From Tubulanus polymorphus (taxonomy: Eukaryota > Animalia > Nemertea): DNA of 64,000 bases. Below are positions 3,539 to 60,853 of this stretch, piece after piece. The notes beneath the pieces were generated by a model, which made no database searches, was not told the DNA's origin, and saw nothing but the letters and a program-made list of their open reading frames with translations. The stretch's first letter is position 1. Every line of letters begins with the position of its first letter. The stretch lies in contig NC_134027.1 in the NCBI RefSeq assembly GCF_964204645.1, positions 12,804,485-12,868,484 on the forward strand. Reading direction: 5' to 3'. The translations under genes were made by a program, and so were the position numbers.

Positions 3539-4622
3539 ATGAAAAAAGAACAATATTTAAGAGATTTATATTATAACCCAGAAAGTGAAGTATCATATTC
3601 TAACGTTTCAGAATTATGGAATAAAATTAAATCTGATAATGAAAATGGTAATGGATCCGTACAGCACCCACATGGTGATATAAAATATAGTGAACTAAGA
3701 TTATGGTTACAAAATCAACCAACATATCAAATCCACAAGAAAATGGATAAAACTTATTTAACAAGAAAAGTTATGGTTTCATATACCGATCAACAATGGC
3801 AGATTTAATTGACATGAAGAACTTAGAAGAACACAACAAAGGATATTTCTGGATACTGAATGTTATAGACATATTCAGTAGATACGCATGGTCAATTCCA
3901 ATCAAAAATAAAACTGGAATAGAAGTTACAAATGCTTTTAAATACAATTTGATGAAGGTAAGGAATTTTATAACAAACATTTTAAAAAACTATTATCTGA
4001 TAACGATGTAGAATATTTTTCAACACACTCAGATAAAAAAGCATCTATTATAGAAAGATTTAATAAAACATTGAAAACTAGAATGTGGAAATATTTTACT
4101 GCTAATGAAACATATAAAAATATCGATGTATTAGATGATTTAGTGAAAGGTTATAATAATTCTAAACATAGTTCTATAAATATGAAACCTATACAAGCTA
4201 GAAAAGAAGATAATTCGGAAATAGTTTGGAATAATTTATATGGCGCGTTTGTTACACATGATTTCGGTGAACCTAGATTCAAAATTGGACAACACGTTAG
4301 AATATCTAAATATAGAAAAACCTTTTATAAAGGTTATACCCCTAATTTTACTGAAGGAATATTTAAAATTAAAAAGATAATATTAACTAAACCATTTGTT
4401 TAAAAATTAGAAGATCTAAAAGATGAAGAAATATTAGGTTATTTCTATGAACAAGAATTATCACTTGTGCCATATCCAGAAGAAATAGAATATAAAATAG
4501 AAAAAGTATTGAAAACAAAAACTCTTAAAGGAAAAAAGTATTCTTTGGTGAAATATAAAGGATATGATGATAAATTTAATGAATGGATTTTATCTAGTAA
4601 AATTAAAAGAATAAATGAATAA
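3539..4622 (+). pseudogene. Polinton retroviral-type (rve) integrase with C-terminal chromodomain; frameshifted
   Basis: Joined frames give YYNP..SYS, QWQADLIDM..IDIFSRYAW, QFDEGKEFYN, KASIIERFNKTLK (D-D-E), YNNSKHSSI, then YKIEKVL..LVKYKGYDDKFNEWI. Confidence 0.9.
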
Positions 4623-5220
4623 AGATTTATTTATATTTGAACCGCATAATATGTTAGTTACTGGAGTAACCAATTGTGGTAAAACACATTTCATATTAGA
4701 CTTGTTAGAAACTATTTATAAGAATCATTTTGATAATATAATATTATTCTGCCCTACTTATGAAATGAATAAAACATATAATAGAGATATAGTTAAGATA
4801 AAAAAGTTTATTATATTAAATCCCAAAACAGTAAAAGAAAATTTAGATAATTGTATAAAAATAGCAATTGATACTTATAAAGGATCAAATACATTATTCA
4901 TTGTAGATGATTGCGCAAATTTACATGATTCAAAAGTGAGAGAAAGTGAGTTATGTTATCTAGCTTTCTCTGGAAGACATTTCGGGATAACAACATGGGT
5001 TTTAAATCAAAAATATAATTCAATTGACTTTAGGGAGAATATAAGATTTCTAGTTTTATTTTATAACAAAGATAAAAAATCTATGCAACAATCATTGGAA
5101 GAAAATCAAATTATACCTACTGAATTACATGATGAATATATGAATAAATTAAAGAATAATAAAGGTTCAAAATTATTACTGAGATTACAATTTCCCTATG
5201 AATATAAATTTATAAAATAA
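4615..5220 (+). CDS. A32/FtsK-like DNA packaging ATPase
   Basis: Walker A GVTNCGKT, Walker B LFIVDD, GRH motif. Confidence 0.88.
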   Translation: MNKDLFIFEPHNMLVTGVTNCGKTHFILDLLETIYKNHFDNIILFCPTYEMNKTYNRDIVKIKKFIILNPKTVKENLDNCIKIAIDTYKGSNTLFIVDDCANLHDSKVRESELCYLAFSGRHFGITTWVLNQKYNSIDFRENIRFLVLFYNKDKKSMQQSLEENQIIPTELHDEYMNKLKNNKGSKLLLRLQFPYEYKFIK

Positions 5221-6511: not shown

Positions 6512-7760
6512 TTAATACATAACACTATTTAATTGAGAATTTACAATATTTAATTGCGCGTCAGATATAATATAAATGTGCATTTTAAAGTTTTTGATTC
6601 CTTTACTCTTTGTCATGAATAATTGTATTCCATCTTTAGTGTTTTGTAATTTTTTTTCCAGAACCATGTAATGAATTATCCTCTGTTGTTCTAAAATCTT
6701 GCCATAATGCATATTTATTACCGGTATAATAATCAATTTGATTAATGTTACAATTTTCAGATGATTTCACTTTTTCATTCATAAAATGTTTTCTAATTTC
6801 TGGCCATTGATCAATCATTCTCATTCCTTGACAAAATATTTTATTTGCTATTCCTTCGATAGTTATTTCTACTTTTGTTATTTCAGGATTATAATAATTA
6901 TCAACATTTATTGCGCCATTAGTATATGTTGCAATGGTAAAAAATATTAATATACCTTTAATAGATCTTCTTGGGAAGTTAATATTCTCATTAATAATTT
7001 CATCATTTGCATTAATAGTTACAGTTTTAAATTTATCAATATAATCATATAATAATGAAAATCCTTGATTGTATTGAGTTTGAATTATACTTGCAATATT
7101 TTCATCAGTAACTGTATCATATTCTAAACATATATTCGATAATTTATAACTCATATCTTTATTAACGCTAGATAATACAATTTCATTTACAGGAGCAAAT
7201 GTTATTTCGAATATAACGTCTTCTTGAATTGCGTATTTATATGAAGGTGCATTGTTATTTATCAATTCAAAGTCTAATGGAATTTTATATTTGCTTCCAT
7301 ATATACTTTTTATCAATTTATCGATAGAATTAGTTAATATTGCATTATGTGCTTCCGATCTTAATTTATTTTGGTTTTCTGATTGGATTCCTTGAAATAT
7401 CATATTATTTCTATTTTTTTTAGTTAACCATAAATCTTTATAATGCATAAATAAATTATAATCATCTAATGAGAAAACTGTTTCAGGACCAATCTTTATA
7501 GTTGATTTTTTAATCAAATATCTTCCAACATTATCAACAACATAATTATTATTATTACCGATTACTTTTATATCGGCTGATAAATAAATACTATTTGGAA
7601 CATAAAAAATATTTTGTGTTAATCTAGGAATTCTAACATATAAAGTTTCATCGGGATTAATATTAGAAGGGTTATGAGTAATTATATGATGTGATCTTTC
7701 TGCTTTAATAGCATTAGATATTCTATGATTCTTAGAAGGATTGATATAACTCCCACTCAT
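6512..7760 (-). pseudogene. Major capsid protein (double jelly-roll/hexon-like); one frameshift near 6655
   Basis: 374-aa ORF (THNPSNI..LYVRIP..NICLEYD..DFRTTEDNSLHGSG) continues in another frame as KKLQNTKDGIQL..YIISDAQLNI. Size and context fit an MCP. Confidence 0.75.
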
Positions 7761-11042: not shown

Positions 11043-11056
11043 TTATTTTACATATT

Positions 11057-11439: not shown

Positions 11440-14400
11440 TCAACACGTTAGAATTCTTTTCATTATCTCGTTCTCTTTTGTTTCTTCTCTTTTAAATTTT
11501 AAGTATTCATCTAAATTACATCCATAAGCAACTGTATGAATTCCATCATCTAAAATATATCTTTTATCATCAAATGGGTTTAGACTTATCTTTTCAATTT
11601 CTTCAATAAACATTTCATGATCTTCAGATCTTAAACATCTCATCTTATGTTTTCTAACTTCTTCATTGAATATACAATTGATGTAATCTTTGAAATGAAT
11701 ATTCTTTTCTACTACACTTTTGGTTATTCCTTTTAACTTTTTAGCTTCATGAGTTTTAGTTTTATATGAATACATTTTAGATCTAATACCTATGAACTCT
11801 ATCATTTCTTCACCACCTAGTTCATCCTTAAACTTCCCTGGAACTTTTTTATTATCATTGCTAAACAATTCATGATATTTAGGATAATTACTAAAATCAA
11901 AATGATGTTTTAATGTTTTTAAATCATCTGTTATGTTATCAGTTTTTATCTTTAATATGTAACTGTCGGTATCAAAATATAATATTTCTATATGTTTTTC
12001 TCCAAAAAGTGGTTGTAATACATTATAATAGAATTCATACATTAGTAATTTTGATAATTCTAAAACTGAAGCGCCAACATAGATTGGTTTATTAAATTTC
12101 ATTGATGTTCTTCTCATTTTAACTGCAGCTAAATTTTCATCAAATATTCTGTTACCAATGAACTTAGGATATGTTGGTAAATGTCTTATCCTTTTACCAT
12201 TACTGACTAACTCAGTATCATTTCTATTTCTAATATTTTCACAAGTTTTTCCATAGAATGCATTATTCATTAACTTGAAGAAATCTTTTTCGAAATCAGT
12301 TTTAGCTTCAGTTCTCTGTTTGGTGTTAAAATCTACATATTTTTCTAACCACTTAGATTGGCTAAATGAAATATATCTATGTACTTTTTTTAGAATCATT
12401 CCTTGATTCAAATAAAACTTTAACATTCTATAATGTACTACATAATTATATTTATCTTCTTGAGTTACCATTAACTTTTCTGTATGAATATGATTTTCGG
12501 GTTTAATTCTTTTTTGATAATTTGATAATTCTTCATGAGTTACGGTTTTATGTTCGGGACAGTAAGCTAGATTTCTAGATTTAAATTTAATATGTTCAGG
12601 ATATTCTAAATCTACAACAAAGAAGTAACCAATATCTGAATCATCTGCAATATCTAGAATTCTTTTCTTCCAATCAAATTTATCATTATTTTCATTCTGT
12701 AAAACTTCACTTATTTCAAATACTCCATAAGGTTGTGGTTCCATCATTGCCCAACCATACAAATTATTTGCATCTATATATAATAACTTATATCCAGGGT
12801 TATCATTTACATTGAAATATCTATCCCCTAATACACCTGAAACTCCTCCTCTTATAGATTTTTCAAATAATAGTAATTGATCTATATTTGTTAACAAATC
12901 CATTTTTATATCTGTAAATTTTAAACCACAATCCCATGTTAAACCTGGTGATGAATAACAATGACAAGGATCAATGTTAAAATATTTAAGGTTAACATCT
13001 CTAAACCTTTCGAATATATCGGTTAATAATAATACATCTGATTTTAAATATATATCTACTAATTGTCCATGATTTTCTATTTTGAAATGATTCCAAATAT
13101 TCAATGTTCTATTATATACTTCATCTTTAACATATTCATTTTTTAATTCATCATAGAATTGTTCTTTTAATAATTCAGTTATGTTAAAATCATTATGATT
13201 TTTATAGAAAGAATATGGAATTGCGCCTTTATATCTCATTAATTGGAAATCATCATTATTTGGATAGTGTTGTTTTAATATCTTTAATTCATCATCAACT
13301 AATGATTTTGATAAGTTATCTAATGAACTATTTAAAAATCTATATGAATCTATAAATCTTAGGCAACCAAATTGGAATGATATATAATTCTCAGATGTTT
13401 TAGCTAACATTCTAAATTTATAAGTTGGTATTTTATCTTTTGATCTATTTGAATTTAATATTTCTATTTCATTATTAATTTCTTCTATTTTATGGCATAA
13501 CTGTTTGATGAATAAATGTGCATCATATCCTGATAGATTATAAAATATAACTGGTACAAAATTAATTTTCTTAGCTTGTAAGTTACAATTCTCATGTGCA
13601 GCGCCTCTAAACTTTCCATTCAAATGACCATGGTCTCTTACTTTTTTATCTCTAAAATTAAATATCTTTTCACAATAATAACATTTATCTGCAAACTCAA
13701 ATGCTTCTTTATCTTCTTCTTTCATTATAATTTCTATATTCTTATTTAACTGTTCATTAAATCTTATTTCATATTCAATTAATAAGTCACAAAAATGATT
13801 GATAACATTTTCATTTCTATAATGATAATATTCACTTTTAATTAGTTCTGGATAATCAGATTTAATATATAACCCGAAATCAGCAGCTGATTGATGAATC
13901 TTTTTAATAGTATTTGTTTTTGGTAGTTCTTCAGAATAATCATTTTCATAAGAATTTAATTTCTTTCTCTTATAATGTATTTCTTTTCTATCTTGATCAG
14001 TTAGTTCTTTATTTAATGATTCAAAATCTCCATATATTACAAATGGTACTTTATTTTTGTAATCATGTTTTTTGAATTCTAATATTTTATCCTTTTCATT
14101 TGGTAAAACTAATTTACAATAATCATGATTTTCACATAATTGTTTATGATTTAATAATGTACTTTCATTACTGAATCTATGTAAACATTTTCTACAAAGA
14201 TATATTTTATGGTGATCATTTTCTGATTTAAAAAATAAATCGATTTGTTTAATCCACATTTAATGATTCTCATAATATAGTATATCTATAACATCGTTTG
14301 AATCATAATCTTTTGATAGATATAAAGGTTCTAATGTATAATGTTTTATATTGTTACCTTTTGTATTTGGTAATTTGATTAAATCAAATACATTTATCTT

Positions 14401-15939: not shown

Positions 15940-18900
15940 GAGGTCGTTCAATACAAGATTGATTACAATCAAGAAAATGAAGAGCGGTTAAAGAAAATGT
16001 CTAAAGAAGATGTTGAAAAGGAAGAAAAGACTGAAAACCTGTACAAGGAAAATTATTTCGACATGTTGGCAAAATTATCAAATCTAGAAGCCAAGGTCTA
16101 TAAGAAAGAAAAAAGTAAAGCTTCGAGAGAGGTCAGTCCTGAATGACGAAGTATAGTATCAGCCGCAGATTTTAATAAAGGGCTTGCTGATGCCTTCAAG
16201 GGGATGAATACTGGTATTACAGGTGACCAACTTCAACAAATCCTTGGAACATTGACTCAAAAGAAGCGGGAAATACAAATTCCTATATTCAAGGGTGAAC
16301 TCGATCAATTTGAGTCGTGGGTAGAATTGGTGGAAGCAGAAGTAGAGAAACCAGGTTACTCTGATGTTGAGAAGGCACATCTAGTCAAGACACTGGTGGA
16401 CGGAGATGCTAAGAAACTAGTTTTGGCGTTACGTGATCCAACCTATGACAACATCATGAAGGCTCTAGACAACAAGTATGGGGATGTTCACACAAGGCTA
16501 CAGAAAGCCATTGTTGATATTTCAGCGATTGAGCCAGCAATGACATTAAGTGTAAAGGACTTGGATCCTCTCTATACCAAGTTATTATCTTGCTGGAATT
16601 ATTTGATGAAGAAGACAGAGTCTGATGTACATCTTATTAAGAGTAGCTGGGTGTTAACATCATTAGTTCGACCAAAACTGCCAAAGTCGTTGGTTCGAAA
16701 ATGGGAATCTGATTCACTCAGGAATGAGAAAAGAGATGAAAATAATGACGGTGAACAATCTACTGATGAATATACCACTTCAAATCTTCCGATGAGGTTT
16801 GACCACATGTTTAACAAGATACAAGATGCGCTCACTGTAGCTCGAAGATCAGACGGAGAAAAGGGTGGTGGTGGTAAATTACATGTAGAAAAGAGATTTC
16901 AACCTCGGAGATCTAGTACTACAGCCACAGGGCATCCTCTTCAAATTTCCAAAAGTACTGAAGAATCTGATGATAACGCTAAGACATGTATATTTTGTAG
17001 TAAACCTCACTCGCCATGGTTATGTGATGATATGAAGAAAATGTCAGTTACTGAACGGGCAGACTGCGTAAAAAGAAGTAATGCATGTTTCAACTGTCTA
17101 AAAAGAGGTCGCAATGCTCGTCAATGTCACAGCAAGATGAGATGCAGAAAATGTAAAAAGAGGCATTGCGATATACTACACAGAGAAACATCAAGAAATG
17201 AACATGAGAAAAAGCAGTCTACAGATTCAAGGTCTAATGAGTCTAATCTAGCTGATGATAACGATGATGAAGTAACCAAAGTAAAGGGCGCTTGTGGTCT
17301 TGTCAAGGTCGTACAAGGACCCAAGAAGATTGTAATGCAAAGTGGTCTTGTTAATTTGATATCAAAATCTAGTGAAATTACTGGTAGATGTTTGTTTGAC
17401 ACAGGTAGCGATGTGTCCTTTATTCGAACTGCTGCAGCTAAACAGTTGAATTTGCAAGGTCCGAAAGTTGATGCAGAATTTACTTTAGCTGGTGGTCAAA
17501 GTATGAAGATTAAAACTCAGAAGGTAAAACTTCATGTGTCCAGTATTATTCCTGATTGGGATGGTGAAGTTTTCGAAGTTGTTGCTTACGTCTTAGACAA
17601 GCCATGTGCTGACCTAGGTTCGGTTGATGTGGACATTTCTACCATTCCTAAGTTTAAAAACTTACTGTTCGCTGACAAATTCCCACGAGGGGAGGCGAGC
17701 GTTCATATACTGTTGGGAATCGAAGACACGTTAAGAATCATGATGGACTGTTCGATAAAGGACGATGATGGTGCACTAGTGGCACAGAAAAGCCATGTTG
17801 GTTGGATTTTGTCTGGTCCTTGCAGTATTAATTCAGATTCAAGAATCATTGAAGAAAAGTATCCGTTCTGTAGAGTAGATATAACAGATCCGACTGAGAT
17901 AGCGGTCAAGCATTGGGAGCTGGAACATATTGGTATATTACCGCGTGAAGAAAGTTCCAAGTTTACTATTTTGGAGACTGATGCTTTAAAGCAACATGAA
18001 GAAAAACTGTTTTTAAAGATGGTAGATACGAGACTGGTTTACTCAAACATCCTGATTGGAAAGATCGCAAGTTGAAGTCTAATCGAGTAATTGCTGAGAA
18101 CCGTCTGTATGGAATTGAGAGAAGATTAAAAGGGGATCCAGAGTTAGCATCACAGTACAAAGAGCAAATTGATGACCTTATTCTTTCTGGAAGAGCAGAA
18201 TTAGTTATCGAAGATGAGGAACCAACTGATGGACGTACTGTATGGTATCTTCCTCACCATCCTGTTCTCAAGAAAAGCAGTACTACAACTAAAACCAGAA
18301 TAGTGAATGATGGTGCGTCGAAGGGTCCTGAAGGAATTTCCATTAATGACACTCTGATTCCTGGTCCAGCACTCCAGCCGGACATACTAGCAATTCTTAT
18401 ACGATTTCGCCAACACAAGGTTGCGTTAATTGCTGAAAAAATGTTCCATCAAATCGGGATCAATGAAAGAGACAGAGATAGTCTACGTTTTCTATGGAGA
18501 GATTTGAAGACGGATGAACCACCGAAAATCTATAGAATGACACGTGTGGTATTTGGTATTTAGTCGTCGCCTTTTTCAAGTATTAAAACTGTGATGGATC
18601 ATGTTGAAAGTTGCAAAGATCGTTACCCCAAGGCATGTTCTGAAATAAAGGAAAATATTTTTGTTGATGATGTAATCTCCGGAGCAGATTCTGTTAGCGA
18701 CACTGCTTCACTGGCTTCAGACATGAAGGCTATGATGACTGAAGGAGGGTTTCCCTTAAGAAAGTTTATATCCAACAAACCAGAATGTCTCAAAGGGATG
18801 AAAGAAGAAGATCTTGCTTCATACCACATGGAAATAACTGATAATGGAGCGGTTACTAAGACACTGGGAGTTAAGTACAGTCCCAAAGATGATGTTTTGA

Positions 18901-21339
18901 TGTTTGGTATTAGTAATGTTAATGTTGAAAATGGTATTGACACACGTCGCACTGTTTTGAGTACGTTAAATCGACTGTTTGATCCAACAGGTTTTTTGTC
19001 ACCATTTACTGTACGTGGTAAGATGATATTCCAGAAGTCATGGGTTCAAGTTCCTGGTTGGAATGATCCACTCAGTGAAGAATTACAAGTACCGTGGTCA
19101 AAATGGATGAACCACCTTCCATTATTAGAAGAAATAAGACTTAAACGGTGTTTGATTCCAGAAGATGTGACTGATCCTGTATATACTCTGATGGGGTTTG
19201 GAGACGCCTCTGAAGCAGCCTATGGTGCGTGTGTATATTTGGTTATAGAAGATCGGTCAACTGGTAATCGACACTGTGAATTGATATGCTCAAAGACTAG
19301 TGTATCACCGTTAAAATCAAGACGTAGCATTCCAGAGTTAGAGCTCATGGCTGCACTTATTAATGCCAGATTGGTGGACTACATAAAATCTCAATTGAAG
19401 TTAAACTTTGAAGATGTTTACTGTTGGACAGACTCTAAAGTTGTTCTAGAATGGCTACGCAAACCAGGGTACACCTGGCAAGCATTTGTTGGTCGGCGAG
19501 TATCTGAAATACATGGAATTGTACCTCCATCAAATTGGAAGCATGTTCCTGGTGTTGAAAATCCAGCTGACTTATGCTCAAGAGGATGCAGTGCCTCTGA
19601 ACTTATTAAATCTGAGAAGTGGTGGTATGGTCCTGAATTCTTGAGGAAATCTAAAGATAATTGGCCATTGCAGGACAACAAAACTACTCAGACAGCTATT
19701 GAAACAGCTTTGAAGAAGAAGTCAAAATCATTTCCAGTACCAGTTCTACAAATTGCTGGTGTTAATGATTCAAAGATTCAAGATGATGAGTCAGACAAAA
19801 TTCAGAGGAATGAAAAGAAAACTAGCTCAACGTCACAGGATAAGAAGATTGAAGGCTCTTGTGATGAAGAAGATCCATTGTTGTATTATACAAAGTTGTT
19901 CAGTTCACACTTCAGATTCATACGAGCTATGTCACGTGCTAGATCATTGCTTAGCAAACAGAAATCGGCTGTATCCAGTGAAGATGAAGAATGTAAGTTG
20001 GACTTATGGAAACAAGAAGAAAAGTTCTGGCTTAAATGGGTTCAAAGCAAAGAATTTCCAGGTGAAATTAAGGCTCTACAGGAAGGTCGTCAGCTACCGA
20101 GATCCAGTAGCCTCAAAAAGCTAGATCCATTCCTAGATGAAGATGGTTTAATAAGAGTCGGTGGTCGTATCCAGGAAGCTTTGTTGCCAGAAGAAACTAT
20201 TCATCCGATAGTGTTGCCATGTAAGAATGAACTGGTTGAAAAACTTGTTATCCGACATCATCGACGTGATAGTCATACTGGTGTTGAGCAGACTCTAGCA
20301 AGTTTACGTACCAAGTACTGGATACTGCGTGGTAGAAAATAAGTTAGTCGCATTCTATACAAATGTGAATGTCGAGAGCCTGAACCAATGAAGCAAAAGA
20401 TGGGTCGCTTACCTGCTGAAAGAGTAAATGTCTCATTGCCCTTCAGCTGTGTTGGTGTAGATTTTGCTGGTCCACTCTATGCCAAGAAGTCAAGAAATAA
20501 GGACATCAAGACGTATATTGCATTTTACTTGCATGGCTACCAGAGCATGTCATCTAGAGTTGGTAGAAAGTCTGAATACCAATGATTTTCTAGCCGCTGT
20601 AAGACGGATGATGAATCGGAGAGGAAAGGCAAATACAATTTACTCTGATAATGCGAAGACCTTCAAGAAGGTATCTGAAGTCCTTACTATACTGTACAGT
20701 CCACGGAACAAGAAGAAAATTCGTGATAGTCTTCACCATGAGGGAATAAAATGGAAATTCATTCCTCCGAGATCTCCGTGGGTTGGCGGTTTTTATGAGC
20801 GCCTCGTAAAGAACGTCAAAGTGCCTCTACGAAGAGTTTTGGGAAAAGCAAGATTATCTGTATCAGAACTTCAGACAGTTCTCACTGATATTGAAGCTCA
20901 AGTGAACTCGAGACCACTTCTAAGCGTTTCGTCTGATCACAAAGATCCACTGCCGATCACGCCAGGTCATTTGACTGTTGGGAGAAATTTACAGTGTATT
21001 CCTGATGATGATTCAATCACACAGAAGATGGGTTTGGATAAAAGATGGCAGCTTTCACAGAAACTTTCGAAACTTTTTTGGAACCCGTGTTATAAAGAAT
21101 ATGTTGCAGGTCTCAACATAAAAAGAAAATGGTTCGAAGAACAGGGAAATGCCAAGGTTGGAGGTGTGGTGTTGATCACAGACGACAGTAAGAAGAAGAT
21201 GGAGTGGCCAATGGGTAGAATTGTTGAAGTACATCCAGGTCGTGACGGACTGGTAAGATCTGTTACATTAAGAACTAAGTCTGGGTTGATTAGGAGATCA
21301 GTTCAACGTCTCAGGCTTCTTGAAGGAGTCAAAATTTAA
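15940..21339 (+). pseudogene. BEL/Pao gag-pol polyprotein with several frameshifts and stops
   Basis: Zn knuckles CIFC..H..C, CFNC, CRKC..H; protease LFDTGS; RT YLPHHPV..RIVNDGAS, FVDD; RNase H GFGDASEAAYG, WTDS, NPADLCSRG; integrase VDFAGP, SDNA, GGFYERLV; WPMGRI..HPGRDG. Confidence 0.92.
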
Positions 21340-23296: not shown

Positions 23297-26200
23297 TTAA
23301 TAACCATAAGGTAATGTTTTTATTCCATCATCTAAAATATGCCTTTTATCATCAAATGGATTCAAACTAGTTTTTTCAACTTCATTAATGTACATCTCGT
23401 GATCTTCTGATCATAAACAATTCATTTTGTGTTTCATTACAATTGAGTTATATAAACACTTAATATAATCTTGAAATTCTATATGTTTATCAACCACGTG
23501 CTTTGTTATTCCTTTTAACTTTTTAGCTTCATGATCTTTTGTTCTATAACTGTACATTCTACTTCTTATCCCAACAAATTCAATCATTTCATCACCCCCT
23601 AATTCATCTTTAAACTTACCAGGAATCTTTTTATTATCATTACTAAATAGTTCATGATCTTTGGGATAATTGCTAAAATCAAAATAATGTTTTAATGTTT
23701 TTAAGTCTTTTGTTATATCATTTGTCTTGATTTTTAGTATGTACGCGTCCGGATTTTTTTTAGGATTAATGGGAACCCAGAATTGAATGTTCCATCATCT
23801 GTTGATAAATCATAAACATAATCTGTTGGGTTATATATTTCAAATAAATCATTAACTTCTTCTGTTAATTCTTTTTCTACACGCCTTAAATTAAAACAAT
23901 TTGGTTTAGATTTAATTAATTCAATATTCATATTAAGACCTAATGAATTGCATAATATATTTAACCCTGATATAGCAACTTTTCCGTTCTGTGCAAAGGT
24001 TATCTTTTTATCCTTTGTAATTTTTTTAGAGCCATCTGCAGCATAGAATCCAATGAAGAACCATTTTCTTAAATTATATTTTGCATTTAATACATAATCT
24101 GGAACTATCTTTTCTTTAGTTGAAGTATTACTTTTAACTATTGCATGAATATAGAATTCATCATTATATTTTGTAGCAAAATCTTTAGGATTATTTACAA
24201 ATATTCTATATAGCGCGAATGATTTCATATGATCCACGATTCTAAATATTTTATGTGAATAAACTTCTTCACAGAATTTCTTAATTCTTTCTAATAATTT
24301 CAAATCTTGATTGCATAAATACCAACGATATTGAGTGCGATTTACATATTTATACACACCTGCTGAACCATCTCCCATAAAAAATCCTTTGATAAAATAT
24401 TCTTTTTCTTCTAATGTTTCGGGTTCTATATTATAAATATTATCAATTACTTCATCAAATGACATATGATTCTTTCTTTGGAAAAATCTTTTATGTAATA
24501 ATTCATCTCCAATTTTTATATCAGTTGGTTTTATTTCATCACCATTTCGTTTAATTAAACTATGATCTTCTGTAACATCTACAAACCCTAATTTAGTTCT
24601 AACTCTATAGATTTTCTTATTTGTTTTATGCCTAATGATATTCTTTAATTTTTTCCATTTCTTGTCCAAACATCCATTAATTCATTTATTTGTATTAATT
24701 CTTTTTCACCATATGAAATATAACATTCATTTTGTTTTGGAATTATTTCTGAAATTCTTCTTACCAATATTTTATTATTACATTTTAATAATATTGGGGT
24801 GTCAGCTGTTACAGAATCAAAATATAAGATTTCTATACGTTTTTTCCCAAAAAGTGGTTGTAGAACATTATAATAAAAATCATACATTAATAATTTTGAT
24901 ACTTCTAAAACAGTTGAATCAATGAATATAGGTTTATTAAATTTCATCGTTCTTTTTAATTTAACTGCTGTTAAATAATCTTCAAATCTTTTATTTCCTA
25001 AATGTCTAGGACTTGATTGTAAATGTCTTAATCTACCAGAATTATTTACTAATTCAATATCACTTCTATTTCTATTATTTTCACATGTTTTACCATAAAA
25101 ACTACTATTCATTAATTTGAAGAAATCTTTTTCAAAATCTGTTTTTAATATGGTTCTCTGTTGAGTATTAAAATCTATATATTTTTCTAACCACTTCGAT
25201 TGATTAAACTCAATAAATCTATGTACTTCCTTTAATTTCATTCCTTGTTTTAGATACAATTTTAAAATTCTATAATGAACAATATAATTATATTTATTAT
25301 TTTGTGTAAGTATTAATTTTTCTGTAAAAACATGATCTTTCGGTTTTATTTTCTTCTGGTATTCACTTAAATAACTATCATCTACGGCTAAATGTTCTGG
25401 GCAATATGGTAAGTTTCTTGTTTTAAACTTTATGTTATCAGGATATTCTAAATCAACTACAAATAAATAACCAATTGGTGCTTCATCTTTTAAACTCGCA
25501 ATTGCGCTTTCCCAATCAGTTTTATCATCATTTTCAACTTCTGTTAATATAAAATTTTTGTGTTGTTGAGGTTGCATCATTGCCCAACCATATAAATTAT
25601 TGGCGTCAATATATAATAATTTATATTCATCATTTGCTTTAAAATGTCTATCTCCCATAACACCACTAATTCCACCTCTAATTGATTTTTCAAATAATAA
25701 AACCATGTCTGGTTCTTTTAATAAATCCAATTCTACATTTGTATATTTTAAACCACATTGCCAGGTTAAACCAGGACTTGAATAACAATAACAAGGATCA
25801 ACATTAAAATGATTCAAATTAACTTCCTTAAATTTTTCAAATATGTCAGCCAATATCATAACATCTGATTTTAAATACAAATCTACTAATTCACCATGAT
25901 TTTTTATCTTAAAGTGATTCCAAATATTTAATGTTCTATTAAAAACTTCATCTTTCACATACTCCTCTTTTAATTGATCATAAAATTGTTCTTTTAATAA
26001 TTCTGTTACATTAAAGTCATCATGTGTTTTGTTAAATGAATACGGAATTGCGCCTTTATATCTCAATAATTTAAAATCTTGTTCATTTGGGTAATAATGT
26101 CGAGTTATTATAAAATCATTATCAACTAAACTTTTTGCTAAATTATCTAATTAACTTGCTAGAAATCTATAAGAATCTAAAAATCTAATGCAACCAAATT

Positions 26201-26745
26201 GAAATGAAATGTAATTTTCAGATGTCTTAGCTAATAGTTTAAAATCATATTTTCTTACATTTGCGCCATTCATAGCATTATATTCTTCTATTTCTTGATT
26301 AATTGTGCCCAATTTTCCTGATAACTGTTTTATAAATAGATGGGTATCATAGCCCGATGAATTATGCAATAATATTGGTACGAAATTAACTTTCTTAGCT
26401 TGTAAATTACAATCTTCATGAGCAGCTCCACGATATTTTGAATTTAAATGATCGTGATCTCTAACTTTTTTATCAAATGAATGAAAACGTTTTTCACAGT
26501 TACAACAATGAGTTGAGTAATTAAAATCAATTTCATCTTCTTTTGTTATAACTATTCTTTTATTTTTGTTTAATAATTTTGCAAAATCACTTTCTAATTC
26601 AATTATTTTGTTACAAAAATTGTTAACTACATCTTGACCTCTAAAAGGAATATATTGACTTTGATATAATTCAGGATAATTTGATTTTTTATGTAAATTC
26701 CATAAGCAGCAGCTCTTTGATGAACTTTTTTAATTGTATAATTAT
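23297..26745 (-). pseudogene. Protein-primed PolB, copy B, interrupted by an intein; 5'-truncated, with stops and frameshifts
   Basis: HNSSGYD, YIDANNLYG, KLMNSSFYGKT, ILYFD|intein|(P)DAYILKIK..FDFSNYP..FKDELGG..PFDDKR. Confidence 0.92.
23753..24815 (-). mobile_element. Intein (~355 aa reconstructed) with LAGLIDADG homing endonuclease, inserted in PolB motif C
   Basis: Block A SVTADTPILL directly after YFD; block B VDVTEDHSL; LAGLIDADG motifs FIKGFFMGDGS and FFIGFYAADGS; block F YVYDLST; ends ..LILKN. Two frameshifts (~24655 and the A-run at 23754-23760). Confidence 0.92.
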
Positions 26746-28265
26746 ACTCTTTTTGCGCCATTCTACAATCCCGACTAAACCACCTATTATACGCTTGCTT
26801 TTTACGGCTACTGCTCTTCCTATGCTGCATAAGATTACACTCATCGGCACTTTCTAATAATGACGATACAAATTTATCATTAAGTTCATTTATACAGTCA
26901 GCTGTTTGCGTATCTGCATTCTGAAGCCCGTTCAACAGTAAATCGTTCAGGTTAGCGTTACACAATTTTGATTCAACGGTAGCAAAGAATTGATCTGATT
27001 TTTCTTTGTCCCATCTCACTGACGGGATCTCTTCCGTCCGCCCATTATAACATGCCCACATACAAACAGAGCGAGATAGCATTGTGTCCATCGGATAATA
27101 AAGGATCGAAAGGCATTATTTCAAATTTAGAAAAATAATTAAACAACTCAACATCACTCAAACAATAATCGATAACACTAGTGCCCTTAAAGGTATAATT
27201 ACCAGACTGGTCACTGCCACACCTGCCATTAAGAATGATTAGTGAATGATTGTTACACAAGTCAGTTAATTGATATCCGGTATTATTGGTTTTTTTGTCT
27301 TGGTTGTTTCTAGTAGTGGGGACACCTAGATTAGATGACAGCGCGAGTCAACAATAGAGTGTAAATTATGTTCGTCTATGATATGAATATCAGGTTCTAA
27401 TAAGTCAGGCAAACAAGAAGTGTGGGCATTAAAATCTCCAGTAATTAATACATTAATATCGTGTTCGACTCTTAATTGTAATAGTTCTAACTCGATTTCA
27501 CTAATTGCTCCTTCCGAATAGTAGCGACTATTTTCGGGGGGAATATAAACCACACCTAAAAGTATATGTTTGTCGTAATTAAATAAAGACTTATCTAATA
27601 GGTACCAAGATACATATTGACTGTCAGTCGAAATTGGTCTTATTTTAGATTGTAGAAGTTTCTTGTAAATGATGCCAACGCCACCAGAGCCTTTCTTCGA
27701 AAACCGTTTCCTATTTTTAAAATGACCTACATAAGAAGCGGGCAAACTACTGCTTAGATCACCATCTACATCATCTAGATGAGTTTCGGTCAAACATACA
27801 ATATCGTTACTGCAGATAAAATCTGAAAATTCCGGGATGTCAAGTTTGCTTGTCAAATCACACACATTAAGAGTAGATAAATTCATACCAACAGGATCAT
27901 CAATAATTACATTTTGCTCATCACAAGAATTGCAAGTTTCGCTATCTGACGTAATATTAAATCTTTGGCTATTTACAGGAACACATGAATCTAAACTTTC
28001 ACTTCCGCTATTTACATCTTGATATATGTGAATACTATTAACAAACTCTTCAACAAAACACCGCTTTCTCGACTGGAGCACCGCGCGATCTACGAACTCT
28101 AAGCAGAAGCCCTCCGCGACTTCCTAGGCGCTGTCCATAGCTGAACGATCATACGGATCACGAATAACTAGTTTGTCGCGGACGAAAAACGCACGCTTAC
28201 CACTGGCTTTCGCAGCCCGCAACTCTGGAAGTTTCTCGCGCCTGCGGGCTGCCCATTCCTCCGGG
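26746..28265 (-). mobile_element. Non-LTR retrotransposon (LINE) fragment: ORF1 C-terminus and APE endonuclease, truncated before RT
   Basis: RRREKLPEL..RAFFVRDKLVI; NVC..DIVCLTETH..GGVGI..VYIPP..GDFNAHT; LNGR..SVIDY..SDGH; WFSRDC. Confidence 0.85.
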
Positions 28266-51124: not shown

Positions 51125-52790
51125 ATCAATTCAATTCAATAAAATACTATTTGTAAATAAAATTCTTACGGAAAAATAGAAACCAGGGATAACCCCCAAA
51201 CCGAACGGACTCACCGTTATGAGAGTGAAAACTCCCTAATATCCTAATTCCCAGATTTTTACGGCGAAAAAATCCAACGCGTTCTACTGCGAGAACGCCA
51301 AGAAAAAAGATGGCGGATTTCGCCAGTGGCTAAATGCAATACCGCAGGGCCGGGTCGTATAGAAAAACCATTGGCGATCAATTCAAATTTAGAAAATATT
51401 GGCAAAAACCATAGGAAAGGGTACAGTACTCGACGGAAATATTGTGTAAAACCTATTTTCTAAATGTGATATGTGTATAAATGATAAGTGTGTTAGTAAT
51501 TTTGATTTTAGTAAAGCCATTACTGAGAAATAAGACTTTAAAGTCGGGTATCATCACCAGTTTGCCATACACAGCAGGTGTGCGTTTACTGTGAAACACC
51601 ACTATAGCTGACGTCATTGTAGTCAAACACACATTTCCACGCACGTTGTACCACTGAACAATAACAAACTTTTGGTGCGCTTTATGAATAGCAAAGCTAT
51701 GGCAAACGAATAGATTTGATTTAAAACAATGAACTTAGCTTTATTAGATAGATTTCAAAACAGTCCGCGGTGAAATAAGCAGTGTATGTCTGAAATAATC
51801 CACTAAATTCCAGTCTCTAATCCTGAACCGTATAATCACCGTTCGTAGCGTATTCAATCCTTTTAGAGTTGTTTAAGATTCCTAAATTCTTTCTGATGTA
51901 TAGCGTTGATACTGTTATACATAACAACAAAAATTCAATGGATAGCCAGCAGTAGAGCTGTGAATACAGTGAAGGAATGATGTTGTTTTATAGATTTTAT
52001 ATATAGGCTATTAGTACTGAGTTCACACACATGTATGTTTGTTTGGCAAAGATGAAGCATGAATGTGGCGCTGACACCTGGCTGCTTCTGAGGTGCATAT
52101 GCTATATAGGTCAATGATCCAGTTATTTAATTTTACTGATTTAAGACAAATAAGTGATTTTTTTCTATAAGGCTGATCCCAGGTAGTCAGTTACATAGTT
52201 AAGTATCATTTGCAAAGTAAATCTCTAAAAGTAGGAATTAGAGGGCACTTGACCTTTAAGTTATGCTGATATAGAGAGTAATTTCATGCTATATCATCAT
52301 CATATTTTTTGTACATAGGCCAATTTCAAATCCATTCTTACCCTACTCACATCCCTTCTAAATGGCAGTTTGAATTGCCAATATGGTGGTACAACTATAA
52401 ATGTAGCTAATGTGAGCGAAATACGTTCGTCATTGTATATTGTTATAAGTGAGTGTCAAATTTTGCAACTACAACTGCCTTATATCTTCATTCTTTTTAG
52501 TGGCTTCTAGTGTTAAAAACAAGTAAAAACTGCTGTGCGTGTGAATAAACAACACTTGCACGTCTGGTTGAGTGTGTATAGTGTACTACAAAACGCTAAC
52601 CACCAAATCTGTGTTTATACTACACAAAATATGGTGCCAGCTGAGCACCGTATTGAAATTGGATTTACTGAATAAGCCGCAAATAGGCCTGGAAAAATTT
52701 AACCGAGTGAATGCTTAGTGCTGTACTGAAAACCTCATGTGAACACTTCTGCTTTTGTAGTGTCATAGTTTGTTCTCCAGTAGAACTTAC

Positions 52791-53081
52791 ATCACTATCC
52801 GAATGAGCTTCATAATGATTTGGAGTTTTGTCCGAAGTCACATCAAAAGTGTATATCAACCTTAGTTCACTAGATAACAACTCATAGCCACAGACATTTA
52901 TGAGACCAGTTTTCTGCAAGTCCATTAACTGATCATCCTGTAAATCGCGTATAGCAGCGTGTACTCTTTTGAAATCGCCTTTCAATCGTGCACCAAGTAA
53001 CCTATGATCTGGTTCGGCTCGTAGATGGACACCATACTTTTCTTTATCAGCTGTCACTGTCAGTTTTCGAATGTTCAGTTC
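52791..53081 (-). CDS. IARS1: IARS1 exon (ELNIRKLTVTADKEKYGVHLRAEPDHRLLGARLK..YEAHSDSD)
   Basis: Strong IARS1 match; AG/GT boundaries. Confidence 0.95.
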
Positions 53082-54569
53082 CTTTAATAGAAAATAAGAC
53101 CATGCATGCACAATTGCACATAAAATTCATTAAAACTAAGGTTCATACCTATGATAGCAATTTTGGACGAGGAAATGCAAGCTCTCATTTCAAAGAATGA
53201 ATGACTTTTCAGGCCAAAGTATAGTTTACGACGAAAATAGTGTAGATATTAACGCGCATGAGTTTATAATATATCTATAATTATAATAGAGTCGTAATAT
53301 ACAAAAGTTGAACAGGTTTGTAGGTCTATGAGCATACATTATGTAAAAGGGGTGGACACGAGGTCTACAGGTTGACTGGTCAACTTGCATGTGGCTGATC
53401 ACAACTTGAACAGGTGTACAGGTCTACGATACACACCAATAGGTACACAAGGTAAACAGGTAAACTAGCATACATCGACACCGCCAATTCTTGGCAGGTA
53501 CAAGGGTGATCAGACAGATGCAGTAAACAAGACAAAAGATCCAATACCGATTTATTCAGTAACAAAAAGTCCAAAAAACAAACAAAATATAGGAGCTTGA
53601 CCCAGTCTTGATACATGTCAAAATTACATTACATGTACTAAAAAACAATATTGATTGATAAATATCCCCATTAGCTTGACCCTCGGAGTTTATTGGGTGC
53701 CACCGTTCTGTTTATGATTTACCCATTTGGTATCGTCTTGCAACAATCCGAAATGAACTAAGAGGATCCCGACACCATTTTTTATGGGAGATTATGTCCG
53801 CTGCTCTTATAAACTAGAGCCCCAAGGGGCACTATGGCCAGCCTGCCAGCTTTTCATAAAATGGCAAATGATGCATTCCGTGGCCGGGTTAAATTTGTCC
53901 AAATACACTCCCAGCTCATTTACTAGTCAATCCCAGGCTAATTTACACAATTCAATCGTGTTTTCATAAGTAGCACAGACAGTGAATGGAGCTGGCAGGA
54001 ACAAATACCTCAGATAAATCTTTTCCCTTGGTCTTATTGATTTGAATGCGGAATATAATTGAATTTTCTGAAATTTGCTCAATGAAAAAAAAATTGAATT
54101 GGATCTGCTGTTTACCTTGTTCAATAAAGTAAAATTGAATTGGATTTGATATATTTTGATTGAATTTGCAGTTTGAGCACATGGCTAATTAGCATATCAA
54201 GGTCATCCATCCGATTTGAGAAAAAGCTATTTTTCCCGGACTTTGCACAATTGTCAACGATAGTTTCTGTAGTGCAAATAAAAATATTCCTCCCAAAAAC
54301 CAAATCAACTAAAGATTTCACAGAAATCGATATTGAAATACAATTTTAGATCTTAAAATGAAACTCGGAAGTAAACGATAGACGATACCGCGGGTTCATG
54401 TGAACACAAGTGAGGTATCATACTGATAACACATGGGTTAGTTTAAATTATGTAACTATGTTACGCAAATAGGACAAGATGAATAACATGAAATATAAAG
54501 AACTAGGAGTTGATAATTTCCTCAAATAACCCGTTTCCACCTACGAATGATCACTATCGATTGAATATC

Positions 54570-54985
54570 ACTAATTCTTCACAGGCTCCCAATCAAATCC
54601 CGTATTCAGTTTAAAATCCTAGTCTTTACATTAAAATCCCTAAACTGTAACACAATAACTACAGTCAATTGTGCAATATAAATCATCCGCTAGAGTTTTC
54701 AGATCTAACAATCAATCCCTGCTAGTCATTCCCCACATTAATCTCGTCTCAGCCGGGCATAGAGCCTTTGCATACTCTGCCTCAGTACTCTGGATTAATT
54801 TACCTCGTCCAATTAAATCTTGTCCTTCAAGCGATGTTTTTAAGTCTAATCTCAAAAACCATTTGTTCATCAAAGCTTTTAATTAAACCAGTTTTAGTTT
54901 TCTATGTTTTATGTTGGCTTTTTGTATATGATGTAAAGCCAATGAGCATATTTTATATGGATTTTAAGCTGAATAAATTATTATT
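54570..54985 (+). mobile_element. 3' remnant of a CR1/L2-type LINE
   Basis: LHRLPIKSRIQFKIL and GHRAFAYSASVLWINLP..FKSNLKNHLF; followed by AATAAA and TTA repeats. Confidence 0.7.
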
Positions 54986-55632
54986 AATACTAATGACACC
55001 AGGATAGCTGCAAATTGCGTGATTATTGGCCGGTACATTAAATAACTCTTTTCATAGAATGCCCATGACCAATTTCAATGAAAAATGGCAAACCATTAGC
55101 AAGCAACCGGTCTCAGAATCCGGGGCCAGAATTGAGATTTTTGGGCACAGAAGTCACAGGACAACCATCTTGAGTCCGATCGACCAATTTTTCTCATGCT
55201 GATAGGCCCTTGTGGGATACAAAAGTATGAAAAAGATCAAGATAATTTATCTTAGAAACTTTAAAATTTCCCTAGAACATTTCAAAGTTGGCCATTTTGA
55301 TTCTGATCAGACTAATTTTTGTGTTGAAGATGTATCTTGGGTAGATACATGTATAAACCAAATATGAAGACCATCCATAGATTCTTCAAAACCAAGGTCA
55401 ATCTTCAAAACTTGCTATTTTTCTTACGGGACCTGCGGGAAATGTACAACACATTTTGTTCATTAGGTATATACAGATTTGATGGCTGTCTGCTACTATC
55501 ATATGCACTTTGTACTATCTGATTCATCAGTCCTAGCTTAACCATGCATACATACTATATGGACAGCCCCTTAGACATAAATGTCTATACCTGCTGTCAT
55601 TACTAAGAATTCATACAATTAATTACGCTTAC

Positions 55633-55716
55633 CTCTAAGATGTACTTTTCAAGTGATTGAACATCATCTCTGCACTGTTTGTCTTTGTGAATAACAACAA
55701 GCTCTTTCAAAGGGTA
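55633..55716 (-). CDS. IARS1: IARS1 exon (YPLKELVVIH..SLEKYILE)
   Basis: Conserved sequence; AG/GT boundaries. Confidence 0.92.
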
Positions 55717-56141
55717 CTGAAAGTTTAGGCAAGATGCTAAGTTATCTTTAACCTCATTAGGAGTAAGGCCATGGGCAAATACTATACATGAACATGAGGA
55801 CAGAAGTTAATATTTGAGTCTCTTCTACTACTGTTGTCTCTATGGGAAATAACATCAATTAACAACTAAGTGACTTGAAGAGACACCTTAATTCCAATAG
55901 TTTGATGATTATTCACCCAATCAAATTCAATGAACATTCAGTTCTACAGTTTGAAGTTAAGTCATCTTGCGCTAGAATCATTTTCAGATACCTAAAATTC
56001 ATTTTCAGATATCTAACTCTTTAAATTCAAATTCAAATTCACGTCTAACAGTACCCTACATATAGGATACCAGTTCTCAAAGAACGTAGTGCTTTATGTA
56101 TACTGCAATTTTCCTCAACAAGAACCAAAAATTATCATTAC

Positions 56142-56244
56142 CTTCAGGGGAAGTGTTTTACGGTCACGTATTACTCTTCCAAGTTCAATTACTGCCTGTG
56201 TTTTTGACACTGCATCTTCAACTCTAGTATCAATCAGGTTTTCT
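56142..56244 (-). CDS. IARS1: IARS1 exon (ENLIDTRVEDAVS..VIELGRVIRDRKTLPLK)
   Basis: Conserved VIELGRVIRDRKT; phase matches the previous exon. Confidence 0.92.
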
Positions 56245-56613
56245 CTAAAAATTTGAATTTTTGGAACTAAAATTTTCATTTCCGAATAGTCCCTTCCCGT
56301 GGTTCACGCAAATAATCGATTGATCTACAATGATTTTTTGCGCCGTAAAACCCTAACAATACTTATTAATACCTTAAAAATAGTTATTTAAGGGGTTCTG
56401 TGTGAGTTGATGTGCACGATGTCATCGATCTTGACGTTTCAAAACAACAATAAAAGTTGTAAATTTTGACGTGAATGGTAATGAAATATATTCAATTGGA
56501 ATTAATGAAAATTGCCAATAGATTGGTTCGATTTACGGATAATTGCATGAAATCGTGAAACTTAATGATTTCAGGCGATTCAATTATATGATCATAATAA
56601 ATCAAATTATTAA

Positions 56614-58865
56614 CCCATTAGCACTCAAGCCGCCCATATCCACCCTGCCTATTACTCCTCAAGCCGCCCGGCACTTTTTTCGTATGCTGCACAAAAACAT
56701 TTATAGTGGGATTCAAACCCAATATCTTATGATAAACTACACACCTAAGTCCTCGAAATACCAAACAGAAATCAACATCCTCCTATTTCAATTTCTCAGT
56801 ACTCATCACTGTGCAGCAGTTGACAAACTAATACAAATAATCAGGCTCCAAAACGGATCACTAATGCGAACGTCAATAAAATTACTTCAATTAATGATGA
56901 TAAAACAAATATTCTAGTTGTGTAAATATCAGACTCATCTCTAACTAGAAAGAAAATTTTTAATAGGACGACGACAGAGAATAGAAATTATAAGTGGAAC
57001 TCAGGGTGAATAGGTTGGTCCAAACGAAGTTCCACTGTTAGACAAAGAGTTGAACATATAATGCAAGTTTAAGGTATTACAGGGATTTAAGGCAAAAAGG
57101 AGCAGTTAGCATCCCTGCAAGTTTGAAAACTAGAGGGAAAAAGGTCCCGAAGCTCGAAATATTGTAAGCTTGATCAACAAAATCGTTGTTGGTATGGATT
57201 GATATTGCCTTACATACAATTAGAGGGGTTGAGAAACGAAGGTATCATTTTAGTAATCGGTGCATGTTTAATCAAAGTTATACTTACCACCTTAATGACC
57301 ACCGGATACAGTCTGCTCTCGGCACAATCGCCAAGAACCCATGACATAGGCCAATGACCATGCAGTCCATGGGGTACAAGCTTCACATCCATCTGTTAAC
57401 ACAGTTATTTGAAGCTGTTCACAGACTGAACCAAAGGCAACTGCTAACTGTACCCTTAGGCCCTGGAGCTAGTCAAACGATCGACCAAGTGGAACAGAAT
57501 GAATATTTACCAGCAGTCTCATTAGAATTCTTACATGATATCTTAAAGATTGATTATGGAATTCTTTGACTTGAAAAATGTTTGATAGATCAAGGAGAAT
57601 GATACAAAACAACTACGATGAGGGTGCAGGCCGGTTACTAAGTTACTGAATGCGTGGCGTTAAACGGACGTAATTGTTTGACATGACGGATTTCACGATA
57701 ACAATAGGACGTGTACTACGTACCGTTGTCCTAAAAATTCGATGCTATCAGTAAATCAGCCATGTGGCGAACACGGAAGTAAATTTCCGCATTTGAATCC
57801 ACATTTTTGTCAAATATCTTGATGCAACGTTACCTTATGCACGGGATATCAAAACTAGATGAAACATTGAACACATCGCACACAATTAATCGTTATATTG
57901 TACACCTTGAGTATCAGTATTCGCGCTAGAAATTATGAATTACAACCTATTCAATTGTGCTGCCATTTTGTTTGTGAAACCATTGTGTTTGTTTGATCCA
58001 CCTCAATCAATTTTATGACGTCAAATGGAAGTCAAAACCGGGACAACACAAATCTTATATAACCAAGATTTTGAGGGGTTTCGTCTTTGAAAGCCCATAA
58101 CTACCGAACAAAGCGTCGGATCTTGGTGATATGAAGTTCTTCTGACGCAAATAGCATTGAATTTTCACATGTGTTATTTGGATAGTTAACCCATTAGCAC
58201 TCATGCCACCCGTATCCGCCCTGCCTATTACTCCTCAAGCCGCCCGAATCTGCCCAGCACTTTTTTCATATGCTGCACAAAAACATTTATAGTGGGATTC
58301 GAACCCAATAGCTCATGATAACCTACACACCTAAGTCCTCGAAATACAAACTTAGATTTTACCTCGAATTTTCTGAGGAGTAATTGACACTACATAGTGC
58401 AATTCCTGAGTGCTAATGGGTTAAAGATGCTGCATAAAAAACGTGCTCAAATAAATCCAATTTATTAAACTTTTTGGTAAATTTCTCAAAAAATATGAAA
58501 CCCATGGCTTTCAACTTTGCACACCATAAAGAAAAACCAATTACGAAAACCCACTGAGATTCATATCAGTTCACTGCAGACAGTCAATTTTCATTCATGT
58601 TTATTCATTGGTTGGAATGTTTGTGTTGTTCCATATATATATATGATGGCAATTGGATTATTGATAAAATCCAGCGCGGTATTATGCTGAGAAACACATG
58701 GGTTAGTTTAAACCCTTGACTATTTACGACAAAATTACATTGACTTGTAATGCATGGAAATAAACAGCAAATGAACTATTTGGTATCGTGACGAACTTGG
58801 ATTTCACCTTGAATCTTCTGAGGAGTAATTGACACTACATAGTGCAATTCCTGAGTGCTAATGGG
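56614..58865. mobile_element. Non-autonomous piggyBac-like element
   Basis: TTAA|CCCATTAGCACTCA ... TGAGTGCTAATGGG|TTAA. Confidence 0.7.
58190..58420. mobile_element. 231-bp piggyBac-like MITE of the same family nested inside it
   Basis: Same TIRs and TTAA flanks; its sequence matches both ends of the outer element. Confidence 0.8.
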
Positions 58866-59168
58866 TTAATAGTTGTTTGTAGAGCATTAATATCCAGATT
58901 ATAGGGTAAGAAAGTGTTCGCGAAAAGATACAAAACTTAAAATCTTTACTAGTACTTAGTTAGATTTAGTTTCATTTCCAATTGGTTAAGTCTTAATTAA
59001 GTAGTAATAAGCAAACACAGAAAGTCTATGATTTAAAGACAAGTATCGATACGCAAAATTTCATGAGAATTTATTTTGGGACAAGTCTCCATTCTATCCA
59101 GTTCATTACATTGTTTCAAGACCACATTTTCATATCATTGAACATATTATATCACGCTAACAACTTAC

Positions 59169-59290
59169 TTTGGCGTTGGTAACATTAGGTAATGAATACT
59201 ATTGACATCTCCATTCTTTTTTGAATCCTCTGGGATATATTTCTTAAGACCTCGGTACATCAGTTCAGTCAGAAAAGGGATAAAGGATGC
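59169..59290 (-). CDS. IARS1: IARS1 exon (ASFIPFLTELMY..SIHYLMLP)
   Basis: Anticodon-binding domain motif; AG/GT boundaries. Confidence 0.93.
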
Positions 59291-59938: not shown

Positions 59939-60016
59939 CATTACTTTAGTCATGCTGAACAAAACTGAGAAGAGAGTTTCAATGGTTTTATGGCAATCTT
60001 CCTTTCCATTTTCACC
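59939..60016 (-). CDS. IARS1: IARS1 exon (GENGKEDCHKTIETLFSVLFSMTKVM)
   Basis: Conserved sequence; AG/GT boundaries. Confidence 0.92.
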
Positions 60017-60745: not shown

Positions 60746-60853
60746 TATATAAGATACATTCACAGTCAGTTCTAGGCCAAAATGTATATTTTAGGGATCG
60801 AAGATGGCCACCAGTCATTTTGGCCTGGAACTGACTGTGAATGTATCTTATAT
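60746..60853. repeat. Short foldback with ~38-bp arms
   Basis: TATAAGATACATTCACAGTCAGTTCTAGGCCAAAATG / CATTTTGGCCTGGAACTGACTGTGAATGTATCTTATA. Confidence 0.8.

Follow-up and report, generated by a model that had tools for sequence, protein, structure and literature searches.

Introduction

Among the described systems close to the locus studied here, the intein in the PolB of mimivirus (R322) was described by Ogata et al. in 2005, and its splicing residues are given in that article (PMC549080). Inteins in endogenised viral DNA polymerases are reported in the main text of PMC10710043 from Klebsormidium, Tetrabaena and Hondaea, that is, from algae and a labyrinthulomycete, and the words 'polinton', 'maverick', 'animal' and 'metazoa' are all absent from that text. 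Within Polintons, PMC10748475 reports HNH and VSR nuclease insertions in pPolB2, and PMC11071308 suggests that HNH/VSR insertions in Polinton polymerases 'result from intein invasions'; 'intein' and 'LAGLIDADG' are absent from the main text of PMC10748475. An intein in the ribonucleotide reductase of Chilo iridescent virus is cited in PMC549080 and PMC5874633. As for hosts, eukaryotic inteins are placed in fungi, algae, protists and also large DNA viruses according to PMC5784728, and inteins are called absent from multicellular organisms in PMC5874633. In the literature covered, a scope that leaves most subscription journals, Repbase, InBase and supplements outside, no Hint-type intein is described in a protein-primed PolB, a Polinton or an animal genome.

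Here we analysed a 64,000-nucleotide stretch of DNA (the window) that carries such a candidate in a Polinton protein-primed PolB (pPolB). The pPolB inteins share with the pol-c inteins of mimivirus and Nucleocytoviricota the YxD|TD site, the residues Ser1, terminal Asn and Thr+1, the TEDH block B and the LAGLIDADG domain, and the mimivirus intein is of similar length (351 aa, against 339-354 aa in pPolB inteins) and 38% identical to the window piece. The giant-virus inteins lie in RNA-primed PolBs (PF00136), whereas the one studied here lies in the protein-primed PolB (PF03175) of a Polinton, and the pPolB inteins form a clade separate from theirs. The pPolB intein is homologous to giant-virus pol-c inteins, as an earlier note on this DNA had supposed when it called the insert a pol-c LAGLIDADG intein of mimivirus type, and its host polymerase is of another kind.

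The inteins of Klebsormidium, Tetrabaena and Hondaea are likewise viral polymerase inteins in eukaryotic nuclear scaffolds, but the hosts named in the main text of PMC10710043 are algal or protist, whereas here a multicopy integrating element lies beside an animal gene. The HNH/VSR insertions are also endonuclease domains within Polinton polymerases; they occupy other positions, whereas here a complete Hint and LAGLIDADG intein splits the catalytic motif. The Chilo iridescent virus intein, too, is carried by a virus that infects animals, but that virus is a non-integrating relative of giant viruses, and its intein lies in another protein, ends in Gln and stands outside the host genome.

Results

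Insert in the catalytic motif of polymerase copy B

Two pPolB copies, A and B, are found in the window. The YxD|TD motif of copy B is interrupted by a 1,063-nt insert on the minus strand, and copy A has an empty site that reads ILYFDTDSYILKIK. The two copies are 74-77% identical in DNA; their homology ends at 24816 and restarts at 23743, and the bounds of the insert were therefore set at 23753-24815. The three codons past the site are the sole stretch unaligned in both copies. The GC content of the insert is 0.25, the same as in its flanks. The features of copy B are as follows.

24816..26739, minus strand: N-extein of pPolB copy B, ending YFD, with an in-frame stop at 26151-26153 and cut off above 26739
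23753..24815, minus strand: broken pol-c LAGLIDADG intein, with Ser1 at 24815, the terminal Asn at 23753 and two frame breaks
24562..24573, minus strand: intein block B, TEDH (TxxH motif), a motif also present in 8/8 unbroken relatives tabulated
24367..24396, minus strand: first LAGLIDADG motif, FIKGFFMGDG, acidic residue kept
24031..24060, minus strand: second LAGLIDADG motif, FFIGFYAADG, acidic residue kept; PF14528 at residues 206-272
23300..23752, minus strand: C-extein of pPolB copy B, with Pro as the +1 residue and an in-frame stop at 23411-23413

The insert is read in three frames, with breaks near 24654-24657 and 23755-23761, and was analysed as three separate pieces, one per frame. 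At the N-side junction copy B reads ILYFD|SVTADTPILL, the insert beginning with SVTADTP right after YFD. The second frame reads VDVTEDHSL, FIKGFFMGDGS, FFIGFYAADGS, YVYDLST and GFPLILKK, and the third reads N|PDAYILKIK, in which the terminal Asn of the insert is followed by the C-extein. Intein blocks A, B and F, the terminal Asn and two LAGLIDADG motifs are thus all present, and the insert has the residues of a class-1 intein: Ser at position 1, the TxxH of block B, the Asp of block F and the terminal Asn. Both the junctions and the motifs bear out the insert in copy B and the empty copy A that the earlier note had described.

The profile check that the note had proposed came out divided: the 315-aa middle piece matched LAGLIDADG_3 above the cut-off (E 1e-7), whereas its match to Intein_splicing was below it (E 1.2e-5, 25.6 vs 35.8 bits). 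The window piece is without block A and on its own falls below the Pfam and TIGR Hint cut-offs. The best PDB sequence match of the middle piece was the intein PI-PkoII (E 4e-5). A chance ORF was ruled out, since E 1e-118 was obtained for the middle piece against an unbroken intein. The unbroken intein nearest to it has 354 aa; the 355 aa given in the earlier note refer to a repaired frame. A Hedgehog/Hint or free-standing endonuclease gene was ruled out by the position of both splice junctions within the polymerase motif.

In the window copy the terminal Asn is followed by Pro, and no Ser, Thr or Cys nucleophile stands at +1; like the extein stops and the truncation, this Pro was not mentioned in the earlier note. 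With the two frame breaks in the insert, this Pro, a stop in each extein and the truncation above 26739, copy B is a pseudogene, and its intein is a dead copy now incapable of splicing or homing.

Genomic setting of the insert

Copy B has no Pfam match of its own, and its class was assigned from its DNA identity to copy A, which belongs to a Polinton-type element (element A). The features of the surroundings are listed below.

3942..4403, plus strand: integrase-like fragment of element A (rve_3, E 0.017, weak)
4615..5220, plus strand: A32-type packaging ATPase of element A (PF04665, E 3e-11)
6636..7760, minus strand: probable element A major capsid protein (Atlas feature score of 0.97 against viral clusters, with a low recognition value)
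11440..14259, minus strand: pPolB copy A, empty site YFDTDS (PF03175, E 2.8e-15), with a stop at 14260-14262 and a frame change near 14.5 kb
16147..21339, plus strand: BEL/Pao LTR retrotransposon lying between element A and element B (Peptidase_A17, DUF1759, DUF5641, rve)
27326..28123, minus strand: LINE-type endonuclease remnant upstream of the copy B cut-off (Exo_endo_phos, E 4e-11)
52668..62776, minus strand: scattered exons encoding the cytoplasmic isoleucyl-tRNA synthetase (IARS1) and serving as host marker (match to chain 9w01_B)

Element A carries the packaging ATPase, and element B is a remnant without one that sits between the BEL/Pao retrotransposon and the LINE fragment. For the capsid candidate there was no Pfam and no PDB match, and only a minority of the members of the viral clusters that it matched had capsid Pfams. 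No maturation protease was found among the 31 window ORFs scanned against Pfam. Clean Polinton ends, with terminal inverted repeats and a 6-bp target duplication, were not found in the window; the search gave an inverted match of 43 nt at 79% identity (2607-2649 / 28715-28757) and the hairpin described next.

Several other repeats were observed. Upstream of copy A lies a 410-bp hairpin (15530-15939) with 112-nt arms that are 93% complementary; it begins with AGT and ends with ACT, which we take to resemble a Polinton terminus. A 200-nt segment is 89% identical between elements A and B (10850-11048 vs 21722-21919), better conserved than their polymerases, and is possibly a regulatory or gene-start signal. 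Positions 1-1400 hold a satellite array of 31-nt repeats; at 2603-2774, near the left end of element A, lie three palindromic repeats of 51 nt. A GC-rich retroelement at 46000-51500, presumably DIRS-like, has overlapping long ORFs, RT/RNase H matches and inverted repeats (45478-45615 / 51304-51442).

Both IARS1 exons tested matched the 1263-aa chain 9w01_B, which we take to be a human-length IleRS, far better than other cytoplasmic IleRS chains, and the animal host of the window is therefore well supported by sequence comparison, although the Atlas returned no host lineage for the IARS1 exon. The host polymerase of Polinton type and the intron-split, animal-type IARS1 in the same window both agree with the earlier note. 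Its further claim of an intein in an animal genome held in so far as the insert lies beside an animal gene, but it lies within a dead, provirus-like element and not in the animal gene itself.

The link of the element to the IARS1 side is that given by the assembly. It would be very improbable, in our judgement, that the Polinton stretch is a chimeric join, a free virus or a protist contaminant carrying a real intein outside the animal genome. The difference in GC, about 0.24 for the element against 0.37 towards IARS1, would suit such an origin, but stops or frame breaks are present in both polymerases, remnants of BEL/Pao and LINE elements lie interspersed with them, and a repeat found at 31456-32420 occurs again next to the IARS1 exons, at 63047-64000 (88.6%).

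Unbroken relatives of the intein

A homologue search with the window intein piece gave 521 longer homologues, of which the best 120 were listed. Among these 120, the top matches were pPolBs with an unbroken intein (P0004, P0005, P0006, P0007 and P0009), at identities to the window piece of 62% for P0004, 47% for P0005 and 43% for P0009. RNA-primed PolBs came next in the list, at about 30-42% identity, mimivirus R322 among them. The P0005 cluster has 136 members, on contigs of up to 1 Mb, and the P0007 cluster has 121.

By extein BLAST, 72 of the 429 retrieved proteins were of the pPolB class, two of them being the window pieces. Intein sequence was present in 25 of the 70 others, a fraction that is not a prevalence because intein queries had been used to collect these proteins. 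A complete S...N|TD intein at the same site was found in 13 proteins of five clusters (P0004, P0005, P0006, P0007 and P0009), and all 13 carry Thr+1, the residue that the earlier note had proposed to look for in intact copies. We infer that the relatives are Polintons in animal hosts, because they have PF03175, many near-identical copies and long contigs.

Hint cut-offs were passed by several relatives: TIGR01445 by P0005, P0007, P0081 and P0141, and PF14890 by P0005, P0006 and P0432. The AlphaFold2 model of P0403, built on a 60-row alignment (pLDDT 92.8, pTM 0.91), had a Hint and two-domain LAGLIDADG fold, and its top PDB structure matches by Foldseek were TliVMA (E 8.7e-18), PI-PkoII, PI-PfuI, PI-SceI and I-DmoI. 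Both LAGLIDADG acidic residues are present in 6/6 pPolB-type inteins tabulated. The penultimate intein residue is His, Lys or Ser among the relatives, and Lys in mimivirus. From these motifs, the fold and the analogy to class-1 inteins, the unbroken pPolB inteins are predicted to splice.

P0009 comes from a very distant polymerase lineage. With a BLAST cut-off of 1e-6 its exteins match none of copy A, P0134 and P0144, and its intein is nevertheless 43-46% identical to the other pPolB inteins. At about residues 630-700 of P0009 there is a segment without a Pfam match that, judged by eye, we take to resemble the VSR-type insertion of pPolB2. This VSR-like segment suggests that the intein reached both of the polymerase classes distinguished in PMC10748475.

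Contig scans were also performed. The single-protein scan of viral contigs gave no DNA context of pPolB-intein relatives. In alignment scans, pPolB was found in 0/160 loci fetched (the best 80 of 459 viral and the best 80 of 418 metagenome matches) and RNA-primed PolB in 157 of them, and motif scans found pPolB in 0/18 loci. A GTDB scan gave 25 loci, the full-length ones being at most 35% identical and the best seven adjoining RNA-primed PolB sequence; a scan of a phage collection gave one match, at 27%. On contigs labelled as archaeal or bacterial MAGs (L161-L165), related inteins lie beside RNA-primed PolB sequence, and some of these may be misbinned viral contigs.

Origin of the intein clade

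In total, 369 inteins were extracted, and 290 remained after dereplication at 80%. The intein tree had 77 rows. Of these, 12 came from pPolBs; other pol-c inteins were represented by the 42 nearest and by 14 random ones, mimivirus and P0031 were added, and 8 non-allelic inteins served as the outgroup. The pPolB inteins formed one clade (SH-aLRT 100), in which the window piece grouped with P0004, P0153, P0404 and P0411 (99), and support for the clade was 99 after removal of 7 long or gappy rows. A careful tree of 46 rows gave the clade full support (100/100) and placed it among viral pol-c inteins. By these trees a single entry into pPolBs is well supported. Separate trees for intein and extein, as the earlier note had advised, gave one intein clade and filled exteins that are not one clade; the single crossing followed by endogenisation that it had pictured gives way to a single intein clade distributed across many polymerases of Polinton type.

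The direction of transfer is less firm. The AU tests were done under LG+G4 on a reduced row set rooted with non-allelic inteins, with no archaeal pol-c outgroup, and monophyly of the viral pol-c inteins gave p=0.037 with P0240 included and p=0.173 without P0240, a stray row that groups with the outgroup. The NCLDV origin put forward in the earlier note is favoured in that the viral pol-c inteins form one clade in 0/200 bootstrap trees, but the AU result without P0240 is not significant. The pPolB clade could instead be the sister of, or the donor to, giant-virus pol-c inteins, which concerns the origin only and is compatible with homing. That viral monophyly survives the AU test once P0240 is left out and that backbone supports in the 46-row tree are modest (about 80-86 bootstrap) speak for such a course; we nonetheless regard it as unlikely, given the bootstrap trees and the far greater number of viral pol-c inteins in the retrieved set (236 sequences vs 15 from pPolBs). 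Entry from giant viruses is likely on the tree evidence, the giant-virus identity of the RNA-primed hosts resting on rows named as mimivirus and on contig names of GVMAG type.

Distribution of the intein over the polymerase tree

The N-extein tree had 28 rows, 12 filled and 16 empty, and left out 8 rows that were redundant, as well as short fragments and those empty alleles, mostly with Cys at +1, that the pattern had missed. Intein state requires 8 changes on this tree, with at least 5 of them forced by starred branches, and one clade of the 11 filled exteins other than P0009 was rejected (AU p=7e-92). The nearest extein to copy B was the empty copy A (99). Intein presence is scattered over the polymerase tree. 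The 8 changes are not below the shuffled expectation, since 133/500 shuffles were as low.

The P0005 family was compared at the insertion site, which was held by 20 of the 30 proteins fetched. Its 7 filled copies had one common flank and its 13 empty copies four other flank types, the flank of the filled copies being found in no empty copy. Filled and empty copies were 98-100% identical far upstream, vs 11/15 and 10-11/15 adjoining the site. Diversity at -8..+9 was 0.299 vs 0.032 elsewhere (19 rows; 0/501 overlapping windows as high), a peak at the protein level only, in 15 of the 136 cluster members plus two small clusters. The empty copies alone had a weaker peak (0.175 vs 0.035; 5/501 windows as high). 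In intein-free sister families diversity at the site was mildly raised (0.243 vs 0.157; 32/501 windows), and with the other intein-free controls (70/399 and 132/395 windows as high) the peak was mild or absent. Six filled P0005 copies have 338-345 of 346 intein residues in common, and their spread is therefore recent. In the P0007 cluster, the filled P0141 and the empty P0144 have identical flanks.

The P0005 pattern fits what would be expected from homing with co-conversion or from escape (refractory empty) alleles, and inter-family recombination could also be the source of the flank pattern. A history in which the intein entered long ago and was then inherited vertically and lost repeatedly, with little current homing and flanks from ordinary recombination between families, appears quite improbable to us. 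It would accord with a single clade with long internal branches and with P0004, whose intein is the nearest to that of the window copy and whose extein is also close to it, and change counts do not distinguish gain from loss. However, it would need many precise losses among copies that are about 99% identical, and it sits poorly with the intein of P0009 in its unmatched extein, with the retention of both LAGLIDADG acidic residues and with a divergence peak centred on the insertion site.

Among intein-free pPolBs (such as P0130, P0132, P0331 and P0349), many read YxDCDS, YxDTDA or YxDTDG and not YxDTDS, and Cys stood at +1 in 18 of the 47 empty sites counted. Ala at +3 was ruled out as a mark of resistant sites, as the filled P0153 carries it.

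Discussion

We consider it probable that the insert is a decayed LAGLIDADG intein at the YxD|TD site of a Polinton pPolB, from a clade predicted to be self-splicing, likely to be homing and likely to have entered once from giant viruses. Class-1 inteins act by an acyl shift at Ser1, transfer to Thr+1 and Asn cyclisation, and an unbroken pPolB intein would take the same steps. Splicing would rejoin YxD-TD and restore the polymerase, so that the polymerase would depend on splicing. Within the same nucleus, the LAGLIDADG endonuclease would cut pPolB alleles that lack the intein; with a filled copy as the repair template, the cut allele would be converted and flanking codons taken along. Such a multicopy integrating element could provide both donor and target within one nucleus, and any empty copies left in a family after invasion would be those with altered target sequences.

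A broader proposal, which we advance tentatively, is that a homing-competent intein lineage passed from giant viruses to Preplasmiviricota and now acts as a gene drive among multicopy animal Polintons, jumping between distant polymerase classes and driving escape variation in YxD-T/C-D-S/A, the polymerase motif that is conserved best. Homing needs donor and target DNA together, and a crossing between RNA-primed and protein-primed polymerases would therefore imply past contact of Polintons with giant viruses. If true, no earlier intein family would be known from protein-primed polymerases or from animal nuclear DNA, and the clade would be a fossil trace of cells that Polintons shared with giant viruses. 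The Polinton-carried clade would bring intein and homing-endonuclease DNA into animal chromosomes, and, since one multicopy family holds filled as well as empty alleles, homing and co-conversion become directly testable, as does the escape of targets. The clade may also be a source of compact inteins (339-354 aa) and LAGLIDADG nucleases.

Related inteins were also observed outside complete polymerases. The P0403 cluster has 55 members, P0430-P0443 among those listed, on ENA contigs of up to 825 kb, and several members are ORFs of 362-365 aa that consist of the intein, preceded by only about 11 residues and followed by 4-9. Either an amplified derivative of the intein alone or copies of a broken polymerase may account for these short ORFs. 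In P0031 and P0152, an intein of the same broad family (residues 267-620) lies in an ADP-ribosylglycohydrolase at a GGD|TD site, which mimics the polymerase motif, and represents a non-allelic jump.
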